From: an uncultured bacterium
GTDB lineage: Bacteria > Omnitrophota > Omnitrophia > Omnitrophales > Aquincolibacteriaceae
Assembly: GCA_964482725.1 (NCBI GenBank)
Contig: CAYZYT010000007.1
Location: 87,945-151,944 of the forward strand
Direction of reading: 5' to 3'
DNA length: 64,000 bases
Below, piece after piece: positions 24,340-64,000 of this stretch. A program made the translations under genes and the position numbers. The notes below the pieces were generated by a model, which worked only from the letters and a program-made list of their open reading frames with translations, was not told where the DNA came from and did no database searches. Each line of letters begins with the position of its first letter. Within the stretch, counting starts at the first letter, position 1.

Positions 24340-25047
24340 CTACTTTTTTGCCGAGGGGGTTTTAGGCCCGGAAACAGGAATCGGGGCGGAGGTGGATGAC
24401 GGTTCTTCGACGGTTTCAGACGGCTCCTCCATGGAGGATTTTGGAAGAGCGAGATAGTCCTTCAAGTCAGCGCGTTTATTGACATCGTTCGTCCATGTCA
24501 TGAAAGCCATTTTTTGTTTTTCTGCGGCTTCTTCTTGGGCCTTCGGGTCTGTCAGCTTGTCGGCCCCGGCCGGCACAAAACTCGCGATCTGCAAGCGCAA
24601 GAGTTTTTGAATGCGTATGAACTCTCGTAGGCCTTCCTCAAATTCCCTTGGTGAGAGATGAAGGGTGCGGGTGAGCCAGATCTTGTATTGCTCCGACGTC
24701 GGGCTGACCAGGCCTTGCTGAGAGAGGATCTTGGCGATCTCTCCACGGACCTCTTCATCCGTGATCTTAACCCCCTTGCGTTTAGCCTCCCGGGAATAAA
24801 TAATATTTTGCCAGGTGTAATCGCGTAGGAGCTCCGGGTCTTCGACCGGTTTCTCGGACGGCATGAAAAGCTGCGTGGCGCGGTAGAACTGATTGTATTC
24901 CTGGAAGGTCACGGATTTTCCGAAGGCTTCGCCCGCGAATCGTCCTTCCTTTTTCATCCCGCTTAAGGAAACGCCGCTTCCGATCAGGAAAGCCGCCACC
25001 AGAAACCAGATGCTGTATTTGATGTTCTTCCGAATAAATTTCATCAT
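24340..25047 (-). CDS. Periplasmic chaperone-like protein with SurA N-terminal domain (no PPIase domain). Signal-anchored.
   Basis: N-terminal TM/signal. The SurA_N-like segment ([15 protein letters not shown]...[31 protein letters not shown]) is immediately upstream of lpxD, the usual position of skp/surA-like chaperones. Confidence 0.55.
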
Positions 25048-25249
25048 AATGGCGCATAATGTAACACAAGCTGAAAAATAGGGGAAGGAGAAAAGCCGCT
25101 AAAAACAGTGTTGGGCACATCGTACATAGCACCTAGCGAATCCTCGGCATAAACTCCGATTTTTCCAAGGACCAAGGACTATCAAGTATGTACCGTTTTT
25201 TATGAATAAAATTGTTGAAAGGACTGTTGTTAAGCGATATCATTACCCC

Positions 25250-25612
25250 ATGAAAAATAAAGGCGTCGCGTTAGTCGAGATCGTGGTGAGTATGATCGTC
25301 CTGGCGGTGGCCGCTTTAGCGGTGACTTCGACGGTTTCCATGGTGAATAGCAAGCAGCTGAGAAGCGCCGGCGGCAGCAGTCTCGATGTTCAAGCTTTGA
25401 GCTATGCGAGAGAAACCCTTGAGTCTCTAAAGAACTCTGTGAGCACGAACGATACCAACGGAAGTATGGGCGAGAAGCTCAAGGTTAGTGGCACAGCCTA
25501 CAATGTAACGAGCGGACTTCCTGCGGGATTTTCGCGGACCTATACGGTTTCGGACGTGGGGGGTGGCACCGGTCTTAAGAAAGTAAAAGTGACCGTCCAA
25601 TGGAACGATTAG
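25250..25612 (+). CDS. Prepilin-type N-terminal cleavage/methylation domain protein (minor pilin/pseudopilin-like)
   Basis: MKNKG|VALVEIVVSMIVLAV: class III signal peptide with G-1 and E+5. Confidence 0.7.
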   Translation: MKNKGVALVEIVVSMIVLAVAALAVTSTVSMVNSKQLRSAGGSSLDVQALSYARETLESLKNSVSTNDTNGSMGEKLKVSGTAYNVTSGLPAGFSRTYTVSDVGGGTGLKKVKVTVQWND

Positions 25613-26163
25613 AAAGAGCGGTCGACGGTTTTACCCTCTTCGAGCTTGTGATCGCCATAGCCCTTTCTGCAGTTGTTTTGCTTTCCGCGGGTAATCTCCT
25701 TATCAATTTTGGGAAATTTTCTTCGAATGTCGTCAAATCCGAGGCGTCGCTCATGGGGACTGCTCTCGGCACTTTCGAGGAGATCGTCGGAAAGATCACC
25801 ATCGCCGACAAGGTGACCATCCCCGCGACGACCATTACGCCTGTCCCTGCTTCTTCGACAGATAACTCCATTGAAATACGAGTCCATCCGGCAAGCGCGT
25901 CCTATGATCCCTCTCACACCGGTGACACAATTTATACTTATTGGAGAGATGGTGCTAATTTGAAAAGTAAATCCAAGGTTGGGACGGCCGCGGAGAGTGC
26001 GGTACGTGTTGTGTCGGCGGATATTACTTTGGCAACATTTCAAAAGGATAGCACTTTAACGAACCACATTATCGTGACCCTGGATGCCCAGACGAGCAGC
26101 CAGACTAAGGAACAGTTGAAGACAACAGCCATCATGCGGTCAAGGAGCGCAAATTTGATATGA
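25600..26163 (+). CDS. Prepilin-type N-terminal cleavage/methylation domain protein (minor pilin/pseudopilin-like)
   Basis: MERLERAVDG|FTLFELVIAIALSAVVLL: canonical GFTLxE motif. Confidence 0.75.
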   Translation: MERLERAVDGFTLFELVIAIALSAVVLLSAGNLLINFGKFSSNVVKSEASLMGTALGTFEEIVGKITIADKVTIPATTITPVPASSTDNSIEIRVHPASASYDPSHTGDTIYTYWRDGANLKSKSKVGTAAESAVRVVSADITLATFQKDSTLTNHIIVTLDAQTSSQTKEQLKTTAIMRSRSANLI

Positions 26164-26495
26164 AAAAAGGATTCGCATTGATCACCGTTTTGGCGGTCTT
26201 GATCATGATCGCGCTGGGCACAGCGGCCGTGCTGCAATCGGTGGGCAGCCAAACTAATCTGAAGTCCATCAATGTTCAGGAGGTCAAGGAGCAATTTCTT
26301 TCCGAAGCGGGCATGCAGTATGCCTTATGGCGTTCTAGAAATGGGGCGAATCCTGCCAGTGAAAACTATACGGTCATGGATATAGACGGGACAACGCCTC
26401 TCGGCGATGTCGTTATCATCAAGGCAGAGACTGCTTCCGGGTCCGGAATATACAAGATCAAAGTGTGTGTTGGCAGTGGTGCCTGTACTTTTTAA
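26160..26495 (+). CDS. Pseudopilin-like protein (prepilin-type leader without E+5, GspK/PilX-like)
   Basis: MKKG|FALITVLAVLIMIALG. ATGA overlap with the upstream gene. Confidence 0.6.
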   Translation: MKKGFALITVLAVLIMIALGTAAVLQSVGSQTNLKSINVQEVKEQFLSEAGMQYALWRSRNGANPASENYTVMDIDGTTPLGDVVIIKAETASGSGIYKIKVCVGSGACTF

Positions 26496-26537
26496 AAATG
26501 GGAAATCCCCGCAAGGGACGATCCTAGGGAGAAAAAA

Positions 26538-26954
26538 ATGAATAGCCGGAAAGGGTTTTCTCTAACTGAGATTTTGACAACGGTCGTGATCTTGGCCGTT
26601 CTAGCGGGGATCGCGATCCCCGGTTTTTCTAAAGCAAAGGACAAAGCCGCGGCCGCTCAGGCAGTCGCTTATCTGCGGAGCATCCGGCTCGGTGAGAAGA
26701 TGTATTTTGCGAAGAACGCGACCTACGTAGATTGCTCGACCAAGGCGCTTCTTAGTTCCACGCTTGGGGTCGATGTCACAGAGGAGAATTATCATTTTGA
26801 TGTGACAGGCGCGAGCAGTTCAACCTTTACCGCCAGATCACGCAAAGGTGTGGATCCTACGGATTGCAGTTCTACCAACACGATCTGCCTCCAGGCGGAC
26901 GGTACCTGGTCCGGGAACTCCACGTATGTGTCCTTCGCTACACTTAATAGCTAA
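26538..26954 (+). CDS. Type IVa pilin-like protein (PilA-like major pilin candidate)
   Basis: MNSRKG|FSLTEILTTVVILAVLAGIAIP. C-terminal Cys pair (DCSSTNTIC) forms a D-region-like loop. AGGGAG RBS. Confidence 0.8.
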   Translation: MNSRKGFSLTEILTTVVILAVLAGIAIPGFSKAKDKAAAAQAVAYLRSIRLGEKMYFAKNATYVDCSTKALLSSTLGVDVTEENYHFDVTGASSSTFTARSRKGVDPTDCSSTNTICLQADGTWSGNSTYVSFATLNS

Positions 26955-27136
26955 CGTTTTTAAAAGACGATTTTTTGCAAGCTGTCGGGTGGATGCGTCG
27001 AGATGTAGCGGTTATGTTTCAACTAGGAACGCGATTCGTCTCTCCCGTTTTATCTCCCGGCTTTACCGGTAAGCATTCGCGGGAAAATTTCTTGAGCAGC
27101 TTTTAAACCTAATCACAATTTGACCTGAGGTGAAAA

Positions 27137-27556
27137 ATGATCCCCAAAAGCATTTTAGGCGTTATGTTTTTTTCAGTAGTCGTGTTCGTATCCAGTGCGT
27201 ATGCCGGCAAAGTTGAGCTGACCACTTATTACCCGGCGCCGAACGGCGAGTACAGCCGGCTTCAGGCCAGCGGGTCGTGCGTGGGGTCGACTTGTGGCAC
27301 GGCAGCGGATGATGTGACCAACGACAATCTAAAGGTCAAGGGAACGACGACCACCACGAATGCGACGATCACAGGAACGACGACCACCACCAATGCGACC
27401 ATCACCACGGCCACCATCCAAGATGCGACGATCACAGGAACGACCACGACCGGCAATGCAAATGTCACCGGTACGACTCAGACGGGCAGGATCCGGCTCA
27501 CAGCGACGGGGACACCGAGCGGCACTATTCCGGACGGAACCATGTGGATCCAGTAA
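27137..27556 (+). CDS. Secreted Thr-rich tandem-repeat protein (hypothetical)
   Basis: Signal peptide MIPKSILGVMFFSVVVFVSSAYA. Repeats GTTTTTNATITG x3-4, encoded by ~33-nt DNA tandem repeats at 27340-27470. Confidence 0.6.
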   Translation: MIPKSILGVMFFSVVVFVSSAYAGKVELTTYYPAPNGEYSRLQASGSCVGSTCGTAADDVTNDNLKVKGTTTTTNATITGTTTTTNATITTATIQDATITGTTTTGNANVTGTTQTGRIRLTATGTPSGTIPDGTMWIQ

Positions 27557-27606
27557 CTTTGAAAACGGTGGGAATGAACGATTGTTTTCTGTGAGGAGTA
27601 CCTTTT

Positions 27607-28494
27607 ATGCAGCGGCATAGTTATAGGGCCCAGATCCGCGTGACGGTTGCCCCCTTTTTGTTAGCCATGTTTTTCATTTCCATTCTTTTTTTCTCTAAAA
27701 ACCTTTGGGCTGTCGAGATCTCCGATACCGAACTTTCATGGGTTTCATCGATGCATTATTCCGGATGTACAGGCCAGGATTGGAATGCGATCAAGAATGG
27801 AGGAGTATGCAAGGAAAGTAACGGAGAGCTTTGCGGCAACCATGATACAGGCCGTTGTCGGCAGTCCTGCTGCGCTCTGAACCGTCCGGGGATGGGGCAC
27901 GGGACTTGGGAGTATGAAGCTGATGACGGATGGATCTTGTTTAGTTTTACAAGCGTAAGAAGGATCACTTCGGTTTCACTTAGCAGCTACAATTCTGCGG
28001 GCCAGACAGTTTATTTTGGGAACGGGAGCGGGGTTTCGGTCGGCAATCAAGGAGGCACTGCGACGAACCCAGCGCCGAATACAAATGTCAGCACCATCAA
28101 GGTTACCAAGTGGAATTCCAATAACTATTGGAATATCAACAATGTCCGTTTTTTTTGTGCACCTAAAACGTGCGCAGATTATCCCGGGGACTACGGGACG
28201 AGTTTGGCCGATGGCTGCGGTAGCACCATCGATTGCTCAGCGGCCATGCCACTCACCGAAGTTATGAAAGTCCAATGTCCGGGGGTGACTACGCCTGTTC
28301 GAATTGCCGGCAAAGCGACATCCCTATCCTCCCTGAAGATCCAGAAGGGCGGTACAACCTATAGTCTTGCGCTGGTTGATCCGGCGACGGCTCCTGCTGC
28401 CCAAGTCTCATGTCTTCGGGTCAAAATGCCCGGCGTTGCGGCCCCACAAGCATTGCGGAAGTGTGACCCCGCCGTGACTGCTACTTGCAACTAG
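27607..28494 (+). CDS. Secreted Cys-rich hypothetical protein with conserved C-terminal CPGVT...C-x-PAVTATC module (paralog A)
   Basis: Hydrophobic N-terminus, many Cys. C-terminal ~85 aa homologous to the C-terminus of the 28575..29381 protein. GAGGAG RBS. Confidence 0.6.
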   Translation: MQRHSYRAQIRVTVAPFLLAMFFISILFFSKNLWAVEISDTELSWVSSMHYSGCTGQDWNAIKNGGVCKESNGELCGNHDTGRCRQSCCALNRPGMGHGTWEYEADDGWILFSFTSVRRITSVSLSSYNSAGQTVYFGNGSGVSVGNQGGTATNPAPNTNVSTIKVTKWNSNNYWNINNVRFFCAPKTCADYPGDYGTSLADGCGSTIDCSAAMPLTEVMKVQCPGVTTPVRIAGKATSLSSLKIQKGGTTYSLALVDPATAPAAQVSCLRVKMPGVAAPQALRKCDPAVTATCN

Positions 28495-28574
28495 CACCCC
28501 AATGATCCTGACGGAGTTGCTTCTCAAGGCAGAAAAGGGGTTTCTTTAAGACAATTTATCTTGAGATCAATAAT

Positions 28575-29381
28575 ATGACGAGAATTCTTGAGAAAATCAG
28601 AAAGCTTTGCTTCTTCGGAGGCCTCTTTTTTTTATCCTGTCAATGTTTTCCCGACACTGTTTTTGCGGATTCTTGTGCTACGGCGGAGTGGAGCAGTGGC
28701 GGTTACTCTTACTGGAGGCAGACCAACACGTGCAAGTCTTGGACGGATGGAAATGAATGCAACGGAACATCAACGCCAGCAGGGTATTCATGTGAAACGA
28801 GAGTGCTTGGCGATAATAATACATGGTGCAATTTTACTTGTGGTGCGTGGGCGTTCAATTGCTGCGTGAGATGCTGCAAGAAATGTACTAAAAGTTGCAA
28901 ATCCCAAACGGGGACGGCCTGTGGAGTGAGCAGGGACGATGGGTGTAAAACCGGTTGTGGAACCGGCACTTACTGTGCTACGAGCGGTTATGTTTGTACG
29001 AGCGGAAAATGTGTTTGCAACGATCAATGTAAATCTGCGGCGACGACGGCTTGCGGTGCGAGCCTCAACAATGGATGCAAAACCGATTGTGGAGCTGGAA
29101 CTTACTGCGCTAACGGCGCCGTTTGTACAGGTGGGGCATGTTCTTCCGGTTATACCGAAGTGATGAAGGTTCAATGTCCGGGGGTGACGATACCGGTGAG
29201 GATTGCCGGGAGCAAGACTTCCACATCCCCGCTGAAGATACAGAAGAGTGATGGCGTCTATGGCGTGGAATATGTTCCTGTGGGAGACGCTAACGGCTCA
29301 TGTGTCCATATCAAACTACCGACTCTTGGAGAAAAGGTTTTGCGGAAATGTAACCCGGCGGTGACGGCTACCTGCGCCTGA
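28575..29381 (+). CDS. Secreted Cys-rich hypothetical protein with internal ACG.S..GCKT.CG.GTYCA repeats and a C-terminal CPGVT...C-x-PAVTATC module (paralog B)
   Basis: Signal peptide. About 30 Cys. Two internal ~35 aa Cys repeats. C-terminus EVMKVQCPGVTIPVRIAG...LRKCNPAVTATCA. Confidence 0.6.
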   Translation: MTRILEKIRKLCFFGGLFFLSCQCFPDTVFADSCATAEWSSGGYSYWRQTNTCKSWTDGNECNGTSTPAGYSCETRVLGDNNTWCNFTCGAWAFNCCVRCCKKCTKSCKSQTGTACGVSRDDGCKTGCGTGTYCATSGYVCTSGKCVCNDQCKSAATTACGASLNNGCKTDCGAGTYCANGAVCTGGACSSGYTEVMKVQCPGVTIPVRIAGSKTSTSPLKIQKSDGVYGVEYVPVGDANGSCVHIKLPTLGEKVLRKCNPAVTATCA

Positions 29382-29431
29382 CAAAAGGTGCCCCCGGGTT
29401 GCAAAAGATAACTTTTACCTGAATTTTAAAT

Positions 29432-29476
29432 AAAAAAAAGGACAGGCCCCCTTTAGGCGCTTGTCCTTTTTTATTA
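29432..29476. terminator. Bidirectional Rho-independent terminator between convergent genes
   Basis: A8-AGGACAGGccccctttaggcGCTTGTCCT-T6: stem-loop flanked by an A-tract and a T-tract. Confidence 0.7.
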
Positions 29477-30289
29477 TTTCTTTAGAACAGCTTCGATCTC
29501 AGCTTTCCAGGCGTCTGCCGTTCGAGAAGCGCTTTTTTTACCATTCAGGAAAAATGTCGGCGTTCCCATCACATCCACCTTGCTGCCTAACTCCAGATCA
29601 GATTCGATGATCTTTTCATAGGTGGCGTCTTTGTCTTTTAGATCTTTCTGGAATCGAGCTACATTGAGCCCTGCTTTTTGAGCTAATTCCGTGAACTTGT
29701 CGTTGTTGAGCATTTCCGCGTTCGCAAGAATCAGGTCAGACATTTCGTAGAACTTGCCCTGCTCGCCCGCGGCCATTGCCGCCTTCGCTGCCTGGCGCGC
29801 CTTATCGTGGAATGGCAGGGGATAGTGTTTGACGAGGATGCGGACCTGATCCGGGAAGGCTTTCTGGCTTGCGATTGCTTGTGGATAAAATTTCGCGCTG
29901 AAAGGACACTGATAATCCTGGAAAACAGTGATCGTTAGCGGAGCGTCTTGGGGGCCCAGTAAATACGAATTTGCGACCGGGAGGTCATAGACTTTATTCA
30001 TATCTTCCGGCGGCGGCCCGGACATCGCAGCGAGCTGGGTTTTGATCGCTTTGACTTCGGATTCCAGGGCGGTGAGCCTTGCTTCCCAAGCGCTTGAAGC
30101 GGCCTTGCCGGCCGTGAGCAGTGTTGCCTCCATCTTCTTCTGGCTGCCGGCAATCTCCTGAAGGTGTCCGGAGATCGTTAGGGTTGCAGAGCGCACGGTT
30201 CTTTCGATGAAATAGGTGAGGCCCGATCCTCCGGCGACGAGAGTCAGAGCGATCAGTGTAAAGGTAAAAAGTCTATTTTTGTGACCCAT
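29474..30289 (-). CDS. DsbA-like thioredoxin-fold protein, membrane-anchored with a coiled-coil linker. The active site is CPFS (CxxS) rather than CxxC.
   Basis: VFQDYQCPFSAKFYP, read from the - strand (TGT CCT TTC AGC). DsbA-family C-terminal fold (GTPTFFLNGK). N-terminal TM helix. Confidence 0.7.
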   Translation of the reverse strand: MGHKNRLFTFTLIALTLVAGGSGLTYFIERTVRSATLTISGHLQEIAGSQKKMEATLLTAGKAASSAWEARLTALESEVKAIKTQLAAMSGPPPEDMNKVYDLPVANSYLLGPQDAPLTITVFQDYQCPFSAKFYPQAIASQKAFPDQVRILVKHYPLPFHDKARQAAKAAMAAGEQGKFYEMSDLILANAEMLNNDKFTELAQKAGLNVARFQKDLKDKDATYEKIIESDLELGSKVDVMGTPTFFLNGKKSASRTADAWKAEIEAVLKK

Positions 30290-30512
30290 GGGATTTCTCC
30301 TGATTTTTGAAACGTATGGTACCTCAAGCGTGTTTGGAAATCCATGGTTTCGAACGGAAGCCTCGAGAAAAGATTCTTTTGTCTCGCGGGCTTATTTCGC
30401 GTATTAAAATTAAAGAAGCCCATTTATTTTTCGAGTTTATTGACAAGCCCCGCATGGGTTTAGTATGATACCGCAAATGGGACAGGCAACAGCATCTATC
30501 CAGCATATTTAC

Positions 30513-30566
30513 AGGCACAAAGCAGCGCGGAACGCGTTCGTCTTTGTGCCTTTTTTGTTTTTAGCG
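30513..30566 (+). terminator. Intrinsic terminator-like hairpin inside the 5' leader of the guaB-like gene (candidate attenuator or riboswitch expression platform)
   Basis: AGGCACAAAG-(19 nt loop)-CTTTGTGCCT followed by TTTTTTGTTTTT on the + strand. 10-bp perfect stem. Confidence 0.5.
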
Positions 30567-30602
30567 GCCACTGATTCTAAAGATTAAACAGGGGGAACTC
30601 TT

Positions 30603-45160: not shown

Positions 45161-45234
45161 GGGCCTATAGCTCAATCGGTTAGAGCAGAGGACTCATAAT
45201 CCTTTGGTTCCTGGTTCGAGTCCAGGTGGGCCCA
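45161..45234 (+). tRNA. tRNA with CAU anticodon; sequence most resembles tRNA-Ile2 (lysidine) rather than elongator Met
   Basis: Cloverleaf GGGCCUA...UGGGCCC acceptor. Anticodon loop cuCAUaa. T-arm GGTTCGAGTCC. Close similarity to E. coli ileX. Confidence 0.8.
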
Positions 45235-45882: not shown

Positions 45883-46289
45883 AGAAGGTCTTCTCGGATG
45901 ATCGCGCACAGATGACGAGAGACGGGAAACGTCCTGTCCAACCGCTGTGGGAGGAAAGTCCGAGCTTCATAGGGCATCGTAGTGGGTAACACCCACCCAC
46001 TGTGTTCGATTATTTTAAAAGAATATTGAGCATAGTGCGGATAAGAGCCACAGAGACGAGTCCCTGTCACGCAAGTGCCAGGGGGTGAAACGCGGCAATC
46101 TCTACGTGAAGAAAGGCTAAACAGGGTGAGGAGCGCAAGCGGGAACGGCCCGTTCCTAGAACGCCGCAAGGCGGGAACCTTACCGGGTCAGCCGACCGAG
46201 GCCGTCAGCAATGACGGCCCTAGATAGATGGTCATCTCTCGCCGGTAAGACGGCGGGAACAGAACTCGGCTTATAGAGAAGGCCTTCTC
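45883..46289 (+). ncRNA. rnpB: RNase P RNA (bacterial, type A-like)
   Basis: Universally conserved GGGAGGAAAGTCCGAGC...CATAGGGCA and ACAGAACTCGGCTTATAG. P1 forms between GAGAAGGTCTTCTC (5') and GAGAAGGCCTTCTC (3'). T8 tract follows. Confidence 0.85.
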
Positions 46290-60045: not shown

Positions 60046-60116
60046 GGCGCGGTAGCAAAGTGGTAATGCATCGGTCTGCAAAACCGATATCGGCGGTTCA
60101 ATTCCGCCCCGCGCCT
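60046..60116 (+). tRNA. tRNA-Cys (GCA)
   Basis: GGCGCGG/CCGCGCC acceptor. Anticodon loop cuGCAaa. T-loop GGTTCAATTCC. Confidence 0.9.
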
Positions 60117-60148: not shown

Positions 60149-60236
60149 GCCCGAGTGGCGGAATCGGCAGACGCACCGGACTTAAAATCCGTTGGGGAGT
60201 TAAATCCCTGTGCCAGTTCAAGTCTGGCCTCGGGCA
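60149..60236 (+). tRNA. tRNA-Leu (UAA), long variable arm
   Basis: GCCCGAG/CTCGGGC acceptor. Anticodon loop cuUAAaa. 88 nt with extended variable arm. Confidence 0.85.
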
Positions 60237-60698: not shown

Positions 60699-63600
60699 AT
60701 GAATACAAGAAATAGTCATTTTTTTCAGCGTCGGCATTCCATTCCCAAAAAGGTCTTAGCTGCTTTTGTAATCCTCTCATTTTTCTTTTCCCAAGCGATC
60801 CCTGCCGGTTTTGCGGACATCACGCTTCGCTCTGAAGCCCGCGTGACGCCCTATCAGCCAGAGACCGATGCGACCGGAGATACGTCCAATTCTCCGCAGT
60901 CCAACGCGACGCCGACCCCGGTTGATCCAACAGCGACTTTTTTGCAGAACCAGCTTCACTTGGTCCCATCGGTTTCGCCCCAGACCGATCAACAAATCTC
61001 TGCTCAGAATGTCCGGGAGGCTTCGGAGTATTCCTTTGACCAGGCGGCTGATTATTTGACGCCCGATTATGCCGCTGCGGTGATCGTGAAAGATGTTACG
61101 GCCGAAGATCTTCGCAGTTTGGTTCGCAGTGCTGTGGAGGTAGGGATCGCGGTCATTCGCGGGAAGATCGTGATGTTCACGACCGGCAGTCAAAGTGAAT
61201 TGCGTGCGAATCCTGTCGCGCAGTCTCTGTTGAATGAATCTCCCCTTATTATTCATACCCACCCTGTGGGAACTCGGGCCGAGCCCAGTCCTCTGGATTT
61301 CGAACAAGCTGGAAGCCGTACCGAGTATGTGATCACTGAAGAGGGTGTGTATGCCTATAACCATGAGGGTCTGGTCAGTCCCGTCCCCATGAGCGAGGAA
61401 GACCTTGCGGGGTTGGTGGAAACGGCTCACACGCCGGAAGCCTCGACTGTCGAAGCTCGCACGATCCTGAACAAATTTATTGCGGAGATCGATCACTACA
61501 ACTCCGATCCGACCCCGTACGCGGTTTATCGTTCTGCTCAGCCGATCTCGATCCTCCCGGGACGACCGGCGCTTGGCGCATGGAGCAGCCTCACGGCGCC
61601 TGATCCGATTGTGACCCAGCTTTCTACCGGTGAGTTTGCAGCCGCTTATGACGTTTCCGCCGCCGGAAGTTATGCCGGGGTCACCGTTAATTTTGCGGTG
61701 AACGGCCAGGCATCCCAGGATCTTAGCGGGCTTGGATCTTTCAGCTTTGATGCCAGGAGCACGGTTCCTTGTTTAACGAGCAGTCCGAATCGGTGCATGA
61801 AACTGGAATTCAAAGATGTGAATAATACGAAGGGTGCTTTTGCTATTAATAGTTTCGGAACTACGGATGGGCACATTGAGATCAGTATCAGCACGATCCA
61901 CAGCAAATTTCCCGCCTTGGATCTTACCCGCATTCAAGAGATCAATTTTATTTTTGAGAATGCGCAGAGTCCTGTCAAAGTAGCAACGGTCACTATCAAA
62001 CTGAACGGGCTTTATTTTGAGCCTCCGGTAAATACCCCGAGCACGAACGCGCTAACGGATTTTTCAAATCTTCAGCCTCTCGCCTCTGAAATGGAGCCGT
62101 GCACGGTGAGCGGGGAGAATCCCTGTGCTGCGAGCCATGTTGTGAACACGGTCAACGGATTCACCCAGAGCGGAGCGGGCAGCTATTCTTACAATTACAC
62201 CTTAGAGAACGGGACCGGGAACAATCGGTGGGCGGGTAGTTCGATCACTTTCACGCCGCCGGACGCAGGGAATCCGCTCAGCGGATATTTTAATGCGGCC
62301 TTAAACAATATCGTGCTGGATGTCAGGGTCACAGGCGCGACCTATTACAAAGTGGATGTGGTGGATGCGAACGAAAAGAAAGTGACCGTTCGGGCAAATT
62401 TTGTAAGCGGAAGGCTTGAGATCACGAATGATATTCTGCAATTGGCCGGGGTGAGCGGGTTTGACGCTACTCGGATCGCGAGCCTCGTGATCGTGGTGGA
62501 TGATAAGGCCGCGGGTAGCGGAACGCTCACACTCACGACATCGGGATTGAATTATATCCCCGTGGCGCAAGTAACGACGGCTGCCGTGACGGTGCTTCCG
62601 GGCACCCCCGTCGCCGGTGCGAATTTAGGGACGACTTTTAGCGGTCAGGTTCCGAGCGGGACGAATGTCTTGACGCAGGTTGATGCGGATCATTTTTCGT
62701 TCACTTATGCGCTGCCTGTAGAACCTGAGACGGTGCTTGATGCGGATTCTATTAACGATGATTTTGCGATCGGTCAGATCTCTTGGGGCTATTTTAATGC
62801 CGCGACACCTCCTGTATTTCAGGGAACTCCCGGCAACGTGGGGAGTCCTTTGGTGCTGGCTTTAAAAGCGGACCACGCGATGCGTGTGAAGGTGGAGGTT
62901 TTGGACAATACGGGGGCGAAGGTTCTTTTTTGGGCGGATCTTACCACGAGTTATCAAAATTTCATTTTTGACATCAGCGCGCTGGATGAGACGAAGATCG
63001 CGATGGTGAATTTGGTGGCTGATGTCGCCAAGGGCGGGTCTGCGGGGACGGTTTTTGTTCAGACAAAGAATCTGGAATATATCCCCGTGGTGAAAGGGGA
63101 GACGTATGCCTCCGGATCGTTGACGACGCTTACTTCGGCGCCTGTCGCCGTCGCGAATGTAGGGACGACTTTTAATGGTCAGGTTTCGAACGGGACGAAT
63201 AACTTGACGCAGCCTGACGTCAATAATTTTTCGTTCACGTACAGCCTGCCCACGGAGCCTGAGACCGTGTTGGACGCGGACAGTGAGAACGATGATTTTG
63301 CATACAGCCAGATCTCGTGGGGGTATTTTCTGCCTCCGGGAATGCCGCGTATCAGCGGGATGAATCGCATCCCTAATGTCGGAGTTAGACTGACGATCAC
63401 GGATCCCATTGGCGTGGATTCTTACAATCTTCAATATACTGATGATGCGGGGAAGACGTGGAAGACGGCGCAAAGCAATCTTCCTGTCAGTGGGTCGGGG
63501 ACAACGACTTGGCTTGATGACGGAAGTCTGACGAGCCCGAATCCGTTGGCAGTGAGTGGCCGTTGGTATCGCGCTGTGGTGGATCGATCGCATCAAACTT

Positions 63601-64000
63601 TTATGGGGTTGACTCCTGGGAACGTGGGGAGTCCGTTGGTGCTGGCTTTAAAAGCTGATCATTCGATGCGCGTGAAAGTGGAGGTTGTGGATACGACCGG
63701 GGCCATCGTCAAGTACTGGGTGGATCTTACGACCGTTTCCCAGAACTTCCGTTTTGATATCAGCGCCTTGGATGAGACGAAAATCGCAGCGGTGAATTTT
63801 GTGGTCGATGTTGCCAAGGGAGGGAACGCGGGCACGGTGTCTGTTGAGACAAAAAGCCTTGCGTATGTTCCTTCGGTGAACGGCGTTCCTGCTGTGACTC
63901 CTTCGGATCTTGGCGGCACGATGCCCGGTACCTTAAAAACGGGCACTGATTCTCTTTTCACGTTGGGCCGGGTGTCTGGTTTTGAGACAAGTAAATTTAC
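60699..64000 (+). CDS. Very large secreted repeat protein, 5' part only (at least 1100 codons; ORF runs off the window end). N-terminal domain has a JAMM/MPN-like HxH...SxxD motif. Candidate surface or adhesin-like protein.
   Basis: Hand translation from ATG 60699 gives an uninterrupted frame to 64000. Sec signal peptide MNTRNSHFFQRRHSIPKKVLAAFVILSFFFSQAIPAGFA. Long-range repeats at DNA and protein level. The ORF is absent from the supplied track because no in-window stop exists. Confidence 0.7.
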   Translation, partial: MNTRNSHFFQRRHSIPKKVLAAFVILSFFFSQAIPAGFADITLRSEARVTPYQPETDATGDTSNSPQSNATPTPVDPTATFLQNQLHLVPSVSPQTDQQISAQNVREASEYSFDQAADYLTPDYAAAVIVKDVTAEDLRSLVRSAVEVGIAVIRGKIVMFTTGSQSELRANPVAQSLLNESPLIIHTHPVGTRAEPSPLDFEQAGSRTEYVITEEGVYAYNHEGLVSPVPMSEEDLAGLVETAHTPEASTVEARTILNKFIAEIDHYNSDPTPYAVYRSAQPISILPGRPALGAWSSLTAPDPIVTQLSTGEFAAAYDVSAAGSYAGVTVNFAVNGQASQDLSGLGSFSFDARSTVPCLTSSPNRCMKLEFKDVNNTKGAFAINSFGTTDGHIEISISTIHSKFPALDLTRIQEINFIFENAQSPVKVATVTIKLNGLYFEPPVNTPSTNALTDFSNLQPLASEMEPCTVSGENPCAASHVVNTVNGFTQSGAGSYSYNYTLENGTGNNRWAGSSITFTPPDAGNPLSGYFNAALNNIVLDVRVTGATYYKVDVVDANEKKVTVRANFVSGRLEITNDILQLAGVSGFDATRIASLVIVVDDKAAGSGTLTLTTSGLNYIPVAQVTTAAVTVLPGTPVAGANLGTTFSGQVPSGTNVLTQVDADHFSFTYALPVEPETVLDADSINDDFAIGQISWGYFNAATPPVFQGTPGNVGSPLVLALKADHAMRVKVEVLDNTGAKVLFWADLTTSYQNFIFDISALDETKIAMVNLVADVAKGGSAGTVFVQTKNLEYIPVVKGETYASGSLTTLTSAPVAVANVGTTFNGQVSNGTNNLTQPDVNNFSFTYSLPTEPETVLDADSENDDFAYSQISWGYFLPPGMPRISGMNRIPNVGVRLTITDPIGVDSYNLQYTDDAGKTWKTAQSNLPVSGSGTTTWLDDGSLTSPNPLAVSGRWYRAVVDRSHQTFMGLTPGNVGSPLVLALKADHSMRVKVEVVDTTGAIVKYWVDLTTVSQNFRFDISALDETKIAAVNFVVDVAKGGNAGTVSVETKSLAYVPSVNGVPAVTPSDLGGTMPGTLKTGTDSLFTLGRVSGFETSKF
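62611..63878 (+). repeat. Interspersed long direct repeats inside the large gene: A (~185 nt) at 62611-62795 and 63145-63329; B (~265 nt) at 62826-63090 and 63611-63878
   Basis: Read directly. A encodes VA.AN.GTTF.GQV..GTN.LTQ.D...FSFTY.LP.EPETVLDADS.NDDFA..QISWGYF. B encodes TPGNVGSPLVLALKADH.MRVKVEV.D.TGA.V..W.DLTT..QNF.FDISALDETKIA.VN.V.DVAKGG.AGTV.V.TK.L.Y.P. Confidence 0.8.

Follow-up and report, generated by a model that had tools for sequence, protein, structure and literature searches.

Operons for the minor pilins of type IV filaments are usually unlinked to pilB/C/D and pilM-Q. Three type IVa examples, fimU-pilVWXY1Y2E of Pseudomonas aeruginosa, pilHIJK with PilC of Neisseria and mshDOPQ of Vibrio cholerae, serve here for comparison with a locus found in a 64,000 nucleotide (nt) stretch of DNA (the window) from an uncultured bacterium of the phylum Omnitrophota. 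Members of this phylum are uncultured nanobacteria that occur in abundance and are suspected to live as predators or parasites. The locus consists of four prepilin open reading frames (ORFs), termed A, B, C and D, and of three genes for secreted proteins, termed E, F and G, located 3′ of D. For minor-pilin genes, the I-J-K order has been described as almost invariably syntenic, and the last ~10 residues of PilC/PilY1 complete the beta-sheet of PilK (PMC13533445). A different arrangement is found in type IVb systems, where the secreted proteins TcpF and CofJ use their flexible N-termini as a hook to attach to TcpB and CofB, the trimeric pilins of the tip (PMC9565799, PMC6048534). Loci of relatives and metagenomic loci that we compared with the window are denoted by L-numbers.

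The Omnitrophota locus shares with the type IVa minor-pilin operons the coupled I-J-K genes apart from assembly genes, a K-type pilin without Glu5, a J-type fold (predicted for B by modelling), and the presence in the operon of both downstream non-pilin secreted proteins and a PilE- or major-like pilin. It differs from them in having neither a GspH/FimU-type gene nor a PilY1/PilC beta-propeller protein, and in carrying a pilin gene between the K-type gene and the genes for the secreted proteins. Moreover, the candidate tip proteins are conserved at the N-terminus here, whereas in PilY1/PilC the conserved element comprises the C-terminal ~10 residues. We conclude with moderate confidence that the locus serves a type IVa-like pilus of the Omnitrophota bacterium as an exchangeable accessory cassette. 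The four pilin genes are real and, taken by themselves, form an ordinary, if divergent, set of minor pilins and a pilin. The interest of the locus lies instead in the swappable island that it forms and in its genetic coupling to tagged, tail-fibre-like secreted proteins, a large and undescribed family, in a phylum whose members are suspected of depending on hosts.

All four pilin genes are on the plus strand. A (25250-25612; 120 residues), which begins MKNKG/VALVE (the slash marks the cleavage site), is a prepilin of the PilV/GspI class of minor pilins (the 'PilI' position) and comes first in the I-J-K order. B (25600-26163; 187 residues; AVDG/FTLFE at the cleavage site) is a prepilin of the PilW/GspJ class of minor pilins, and C (26160-26495; 111 residues; MKKG/FALIT) is a pilin-like protein at the PilX/GspK-class position. 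D (26538-26954; 138 residues; MNSRKG/FSLTE) is a prepilin that resembles type IVa major pilins. The end of A and the start of B overlap by 13 nt, B and C overlap by 4 nt (ATGA), and a gap of 42 nt separates C from D.

The original prediction assigned a class-III signal peptide to each of these ORFs. On direct reading, all four carry a short basic leader that ends in Gly and is followed by a hydrophobic helix of ~20 residues. The predicted motif, G/x-x-L-x-E with Glu at mature position 5, is present in A, B and D, but C has Thr at +5. When all six frames of the 64 kb were searched with a regular expression for prepilin N-termini, the matches were A, B and D only, C falling outside the expression for want of Glu5. 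Because nothing else in the whole 64 kb matches, the clustering of A to D is not a matter of chance. A variation at the cleavage site is seen in the A-type minor pilins of L098 (4987-5418) and L142 (9555-10013), where Ala replaces Gly at position -1 (MNQKA/M[AS]LVE).

The four proteins were also compared with profile hidden Markov models (HMMs), with mixed results. Pfam N_methyl (PF07963; cutoff 21.2 bits) recognises B (23.6 bits) and D (26.8 bits), scores A just below the cutoff (20.1 bits) and gives no match to C. The best match of A is to PilV (TIGR02523; 29.3 bits, cutoff 52.2), and its score with TIGR02532 is 15.5 bits (cutoff 16.3). B reaches 12.4 bits with GspJ (TIGR01711; cutoff 64.85). 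C has no match at all in Pfam, T2SSK and PilX_N included, and its NCBIfam matches to GspK (18.2 bits, cutoff 130) and GspH (21.3 bits) are weak and confined to the N-terminal region. Curated minor-pilin models (PilV, GspI, GspJ, GspK, T2SSK/PilX_N) match none of A, B and C above cutoff. For D there are sub-threshold NCBIfam matches to the N-termini of PilA, GspG and PpdD, among them 27.8 bits against a cutoff of 88.85 for GspG (TIGR01710), and a ComP_DUS match of 26.4 bits (cutoff 27.3).

Besides its own, B has 38 clusters of homologues, all full length and 42-61% identical (BLASTP), and those clusters that bear an NCBI name are Omnitrophota prepilins. An AlphaFold2 model of B built from the homologue alignment has a mean predicted local distance difference test score (pLDDT) of 87.3 and a predicted template modelling score of 0.73. 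Its top Foldseek matches in the PDB are of the GspJ class (XcpW 3nje, EpsJ 2ret/3cfi, XcpVWX 6utu and XcpGHIJK models), with probabilities of 0.97-1.0 and template modelling scores up to 0.58, and Thermus TTHA1219 comes next. As modelled, B is confirmed to have the J-type, two-sheet fold of the GspJ class. Members of the C family are 98-117 residues long and share the invariant columns N38, Q40, E41, L47, E49, A50 and G51 (an N-x-Q-E...L-x-E-A-G block).

A profile of the D family matches Geobacter PilA-N (2.9e-14), Myxococcus xanthus PilA, Thermus thermophilus PilA4 (6xxd; query 5-123 to chain 1-115, near full length, E 6.4e-13) and 8tum, a 'Type IV major pilin protein PilA' (query 5-126, E 1.7e-11), whereas its GspG match is confined to the N-terminal helix. 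By these profile comparisons D is shown to be type IVa major-pilin-like. The original prediction had likened D to a major type IVa pilin for a C-terminal Cys-Cys D-region. D has three Cys residues (66, 110 and 117), and the C110-C117 pair encloses six residues only. This pair, which L094, L122 and L092 retain and the D copies of L005 and L090 lack, is probably not a canonical D-region. Among relatives, D is present in one to three tandem, divergent copies.

Nine other loci preserve A, B and C in this order and at similar sizes. Given this gene order, the weak HMM matches, the GspJ-class model of B and the lack of Glu5 in C, A-B-C is best read as a trio of the PilV/W/X (GspI/J/K) kind that initiates the tip, and D as the pilin primed by it. 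The same gene order, fold of B and lack of Glu5 in C, together with the fit of the D-family profile, are in keeping with the proposal in the original prediction of a minor-pilin/adhesin priming module; its other suggestion, an uncharacterised type-IV-filament-related system, is not needed.

Similar features are found in the GspH-I-J-K pseudopilins (XcpU-V-W-X, EpsH-I-J-K) of type II secretion systems (T2SSs), which have the same I-J-K order and a K-type protein without Glu5. We therefore considered whether D might be GspG-like and A, B and C might represent GspI, GspJ and GspK, with the gsp machinery elsewhere and E, F and G as its substrates. The best structural matches of B are indeed XcpW and EpsJ, although GspJ top matches are expected under either reading because few PilW structures have been solved. 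Weak matches to GspK, GspH and GspI in C and A and to the N-terminus of GspG in D point the same way, as do the secreted proteins encoded directly downstream of the pilin genes. In addition, the machinery encoded at L125 (a secretin and GspE-like, GspF-like and T2SSM_b-like proteins) is ambiguous between a T2SS and a type IV pilus, and a 2026 preprint annotates T2SS/type IV pilus components in Omnitrophota. However, D falls far short of the GspG cutoff, and the match of its family profile to type IVa major pilins extends over nearly the whole length. It would be unusual for GspG to occur, as D does, in one to three divergent copies side by side, and C, one-third the size of GspK, has neither the large GspK insertion nor a T2SSK match in Pfam. 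GspH is missing as well, as no protein of the window passes the GspH model, and A-D lie outside any gsp operon, with no GspC/D/E/F/L/M in the 64 kb. We regard the T2SS assignment as unlikely.

Assembly genes are likewise absent from the surroundings. Pfam scans of ~50 ORFs across the window revealed no PilB/C/D/M-Q/T and no GspC-F/L/M/D; the matches are to housekeeping families only, namely IleRS, LspA, UbiD/A/X, menaquinone genes, DnaG and RpoD, and further the pyr operon, CarB, Gmk, CoaBC and PFK. The earlier statement that no machinery lies within 30 kb of the pilin genes is borne out by these scans. This absence is not anomalous, because minor-pilin operons normally stand apart from the assembly genes and because the machinery is common in the phylum. 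Most components of the type IVa pilus machinery occur in a large majority of genomes from all Omnitrophota classes (Seymour et al., PMC10066038).

Comparison of the locus with relatives established that A to G and a gene for a DsbA-like protein constitute a variable island (25069-30458), located among conserved housekeeping genes, between a SurA_N-like gene (24340-25047, minus strand) and the conserved promoter and leader of an IMPDH-like gene. Its boundaries were set by blastn against L004, and flanks were compared by tblastn and blastn; the immediate flanking genes were named from annotated orthologous loci. Homology to L004 ends at position 25068 and restarts at 30459, and L004 carries 114 bp in place of the island. 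In L004 and L007, which lack the island, the SurA_N-like gene directly adjoins the IMPDH-like gene. L004 is 92% identical to the window in IMPDH and 82% in LpxD, and the IMPDH-like neighbour of the island is 92% identical to proteins of several metagenome-assembled genomes of Candidatus Omnitrophota.

Where the site is occupied, its content changes from relative to relative, and eight versions other than that of the window have zero to three cargo genes each. L094 holds A B C D and one fibre of 432 residues; L005 holds A B C D D D and three fibres of 278-290 residues; L090/L091 hold A B C D D, a Cys-rich protein of 201 residues and an HExxH protein; and L098/L100 hold A B C D D D, two short E-type genes and a 901-residue protein. 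L143 has A B C D D and a fibre of 185 residues, L142 has A B C D only, and L144 has A B C D D and then reaches its contig end. The last cargo gene of L090 (10610-11401) and L091 (6299-6853) encodes a secreted protein in which an HELGH zincin motif is visible by eye, and which may act as a protease and not as an adhesin. Only the version in the window has F, G and the DsbA-like gene, and no DsbA-like homologue was found at the site in the other versions.

The divergence of the island stands out against that of its flanks. Between the window and L094, identities are 87% for Mrp, 92% for FolE, 91% for LpxD, 80% for SurA_N, 97% for IMPDH, 95% for GuaA and 95% for DnaE, and far lower for the pilins (A 46%, B 51%, C 54%, D 64%). 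Nucleotide similarity is limited to patches near the N-terminal helices. The locus is therefore hypervariable and mosaic. The comparative synteny proposed as a check on the original prediction thus finds A-D recurring at the same site in relatives, as part of a replaceable island. An origin of the island from a phage or mobile element was considered and rejected: there is no integrase or tRNA at its borders, its GC content is 0.503 compared with 0.525-0.533 in the flanks, and a scan of IMG/VR with the N-terminal profile of the E family retrieved no relative.

The first of the secreted proteins, E (27137-27556, plus strand; 139 residues), is a short member of this family, with a Thr-rich linker and a C-terminus that reads PDGTMWIQ. 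Including its own near-identical cluster, E has 32 homologous clusters in a set of 5.8 billion proteins, and these are alike only at the N-terminus, where a signal peptide ending in AYA is followed by GKVELTTYYPAPxGEY. To estimate the size of the family, a 50-residue profile was searched against 1.84 billion cluster representatives, which yielded 1363 clusters at E<=0.001 and 168 at E<=1e-10. The match begins at the protein N-terminus in nearly all of the 150 matches listed, and the proteins are 56-518 residues long. Over 139 representatives the motif A-[YF]-A-G-[KR]-[VM]-E-L-T-T-Y-Y-P-[AS]-P-x-G-E-Y-x-x-L is nearly invariant, and conservation ends ~20 residues past the cleavage site. No Pfam or NCBIfam model covers this motif, it was not found in the literature searched and it is absent from IMG/VR. 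To judge from these alignments, the E proteins are an unannotated and undescribed family defined by an N-terminal tag of ~16 residues.

Beyond the tag, the C-termini are mutually unrelated, and most of the domains identified in them are of phage-fibre types. Peptidase_S74 was found in 22 of the 123 representatives scanned; Collar, Gp34_trimer, Gp53-like_C, Peptidase_G2 and H_lectin occur in others, and one member has been named 'tail fiber domain-containing protein' by NCBI. S74 is also recognised by eye in the E-type gene of L094 at the island site (SDSRFK) and in that of L125. Three E-type proteins of L005 look S74-like by eye, and Pfam did not detect the domain in them; nor did it find Peptidase_S74 in the window's E. 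Short and long members differ at the C-terminus: G-x-[IM]-W-[IVL] ends 22 of 33 short forms (<=145 residues) and none of 106 long ones. Short E genes repeatedly precede genes for larger Cys-rich secreted proteins, F and G in the window and proteins of 606-901 residues in L098, L102, L104 and L122. In L118 (2850-5700) there are four tandem E-family genes with differing C-termini and no pilin gene within 2.8 kb upstream.

To examine how E genes are linked to pilin genes, we scanned 50 metagenomic loci pulled out with the E motif (~330 kb in total). Plausible prepilin ORFs were found only directly upstream of an E gene and on the same strand; two other matches to the prepilin expression were judged false positives. 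The linkage recurs in at least three genomic contexts: the site between SurA_N and IMPDH, a PurN-enolase site (L122) and L125. At L125 (1-12300), a PilO/T2SSM-like protein, a secretin, a PilB/GspE ATPase with an MshEN domain, PilC/GspF and three pilins are followed by a response regulator, an E-family fibre (S74 by eye) and a NosD-like, Cys-rich beta-helix protein of 488 residues; no I-J-K-type minor pilins were recognised in this cluster. An E gene follows in seven of the eight versions of the A-D cluster that have downstream sequence (the exception is L142, and L144 ends too early to tell).

A surface-gene recombination hotspot could bring pilin genes and E, F and G together as mere neighbours, with the E fibres anchored by their tag to the outer membrane or to another structure. 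Such pilus-independent anchoring is the main alternative for the cargo part of our interpretation. It would account for the many E genes that are solitary or in tandem without pilins (L083, L086, L088 and, with four copies, L118) and for the A-D set without E in L142, and anchoring of this kind has been proposed for the mosaic adhesive trimer (MAT) fibres of Bdellovibrio, which have a conserved N-terminal domain (PMC10769870). Coincidental neighbourhood is harder to reconcile with prepilin genes that lie only directly upstream of E and on its strand, with linkage at three unrelated sites, one of them the end of a full machinery cluster, and with the frequency at which A-D clusters lead into an E gene. 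On these grounds we consider a hotspot rather improbable.

The MAT fibres of Bdellovibrio bacteriovorus are in other respects the nearest parallel to the E family. They have a conserved N-terminus and swapped tips, with S74 and non-S74 subtypes, and their anchor is unidentified (PMC10769870). Both groups are multigene, bear signal peptides, resemble phage tail fibres and combine a conserved N-terminus with exchanged C-terminal tips, and predation or parasitism is the lifestyle of the organism in the one case and is suspected for the phylum in the other. However, the N-terminal part of MAT proteins is a beta-rich domain of ~130 residues and that of the E family a motif of ~16-20 residues, and MAT proteins are ~600-1100 residues long compared with 56-518. 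Linkage to a pilin cluster is observed for the E family, whereas the MAT study raises an interplay with type IV pili as a possibility only.

The likeness to CofJ of enterotoxigenic Escherichia coli and TcpF of V. cholerae is one of architecture only. These too are Sec-exported proteins encoded in pilin operons and possess a conserved N-terminal segment, and TcpF forms homotrimers, which is also the state expected of S74 fibres. Nevertheless, they have no sequence similarity to the E family. Their partner is a homotrimeric large minor pilin, CofB or TcpB, in a type IVb system, whereas the E family would find its partner in the heterotrimeric I-J-K tip of a pilus of type IVa character, and no CofB/TcpB-like large minor pilin is present in the locus.

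Three minor pilins followed by a major pilin are also known from the pilA1-pilA2-pilA3-comZ-pilA4 locus of T. thermophilus, which includes a non-pilin tip protein. This arrangement, and the ComG genes, raise the alternative that A to D form a pseudopilus for DNA uptake. In keeping with it, the D profile aligns to PilA4 near full length, the model of B also matches Thermus TTHA1219, D and its paralogues match ComP_DUS at or near threshold, and ComEC-like or ComEA-like genes are found in the vicinity of two solitary E genes. However, the ComP_DUS match is limited to the generic region of the pilin fold, neither a ComZ-like nor a DNA-binding protein is encoded at the locus, and the cargo genes come after the major pilin rather than before it. 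The cargo itself is tail-fibre-like, lectin-like or Cys-rich, and hypervariability among close relatives suggests surface recognition rather than DNA uptake. A competence function is thus very improbable.

All three secreted proteins encoded downstream of D carry Sec-type signal peptides and none has a Pfam or NCBIfam match above curated cutoffs (E has two weak, sub-threshold Pfam matches only). Neither Pfam nor NCBIfam gives a PilY1/PilC-type match in E, F or G, and no beta-propeller is present. F (27607-28494, plus strand; 295 residues, 14 Cys) and G (28575-29381, plus strand; 268 residues, 33 Cys) have in common a C-terminal domain of ~75 residues, with 56% identity over the last 78 residues. 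F is a near-orphan, with five other clusters among 5.8 billion proteins. Its AlphaFold2 model is poor (pLDDT 55) and has weak Foldseek matches to CBM86, CBM32 and F5-8C; it is possible, from this model, that F combines a discoidin- or carbohydrate-binding-module-like beta-sandwich with the domain shared with G. A comparison of that domain with the N-terminal domain of the large proteins encoded 3′ of short E genes in L098, L102, L104 and L122 gave a weak match (hhalign probability 26%, E 7e-4). In P0036, a homologue of the shared domain, the N-terminal part resembles a thrombospondin type 1 repeat by eye (CKWSSWGSCSKTCGGGTQTR).

The island ends with the gene for a DsbA-like protein of thioredoxin fold (29474-30289, minus strand; Thioredoxin_4 9e-22, DSBA 1.5e-13). 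This protein has a single Cys, with CPFS in place of CxxC. Because it has one Cys only and is encoded beside the 14-Cys F and the 33-Cys G, it may be an isomerase-like or non-catalytic variant.

If the locus is a pilus cassette as we propose, the motor, platform, secretin and prepilin peptidase would be encoded elsewhere in the genome. We infer that A, B and C, which appear to be translationally coupled, assemble as the tip-initiation complex of a type IVa-like pilus and that D would be polymerised beneath this complex. E, F and G, with their predicted signals, would be exported by Sec and then displayed or released by the pilus. The tag of E, GKVELTTYYPAPxGEY, would be exposed once the signal peptide is cleaved and could dock onto the minor-pilin tip, possibly by beta-strand addition or by a 'hook' like that of TcpF and CofJ. 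Long members of the family would bring their own phage-tail-fibre-like receptor-binding ends, and short members such as E might serve as adaptors that bridge to Cys-rich proteins of the F and G type. Close relatives differ by replacement of the whole island, and for this reason it probably determines surface or host specificity.

Several observations weigh against this interpretation. A and C, in this respect unlike their counterparts in the type IVa operons, fall below every curated minor-pilin threshold and so do not formally belong to those families. Profiles of the A, B and C families have no match among PDB sequences beyond the N-terminal helix, and the GspJ-type matches of B fit a T2SS equally well. 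Neither an assembly gene nor a prepilin peptidase is located within the window. The position of D between C and E has no equivalent in pilX-pilY1. Finally, among E genes for which 3 kb or more of upstream sequence is available, ~60% stand without a pilin gene nearby, and L142 carries A-D without E, so the link between E and pilins is frequent but not obligatory.

A more specific proposal, which we offer tentatively and with considerable doubt, is that the invariant AYA/GKVELTTYYPAPxGEY N-terminus might be a signal of a new kind that serves docking or secretion at a type IV filament tip. Under this proposal, ultra-small and probably host-dependent Omnitrophota would load interchangeable receptor-binding proteins that resemble phage tail fibres on a retractile pilus, either directly or via short adaptors, and the island between SurA_N and IMPDH would be a swappable host-specificity cassette.

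Both ends of the island carry promoter-like sites. Upstream of A, a consensus scan identified TTGAAA-17-TATCAT (25215-25243, plus strand; 10 of 12 matches), a candidate by consensus only. Because its -10-like box, TATCAT, stops 6 nt 5′ of the ATG of A, and because the DNA directly 5′ of this ATG is kept in L005 and L094, the mRNA of A may be leaderless. A longer ORF start for A at 25202 is probably not used. At the other end, a strong promoter-like site (TTGACA-18-TATGAT, within 30440-30600) and a leader of ~130 nt precede the IMPDH-like and guaA genes. The leader ends in a GC hairpin and T-run, which gives it the look of an attenuator or riboswitch, and parts of 30440-30600 are conserved in L004, L005, L090 and L142, while the hairpin varies. 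A riboswitch 5′ of the IMPDH-like gene was nevertheless rejected as a candidate, as no Rfam family matches anywhere near the island.

Elsewhere in the window, ordinary RNA genes were found: a class A RNase P RNA (45886-46289) and tRNAs at 45161-45234, 60046-60116 and 60149-60236. An ORF of more than 1100 residues (~60700-64000, plus strand; MNTRNSHFF at its N-terminus, with a signal or transmembrane segment) runs past the window end and may belong with the very long secreted proteins that have been described from Omnitrophota. Small minus-strand ORFs in the same region look like antisense artefacts.

The E motif, being short and invariant, lends itself to direct tests with peptides (GKVELTTYYPAPNGEY) and could serve as an annotation model for more than 1000 clusters of 'hypothetical' proteins. 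Should docking prove wrong, the locus would still be a clear example, from an uncultured phylum, of a pilin island that is hypervariable. If tagged fibres do ride on the pilus tip, they would represent a third way of attaching non-pilin proteins to type IV filaments, after the C-terminal strand of PilY1 and the N-terminal hook of TcpF and CofJ, and a parallel to the MAT fibres of Bdellovibrio. The recognition molecules of Omnitrophota and the point at which they are mounted would then both have been named.

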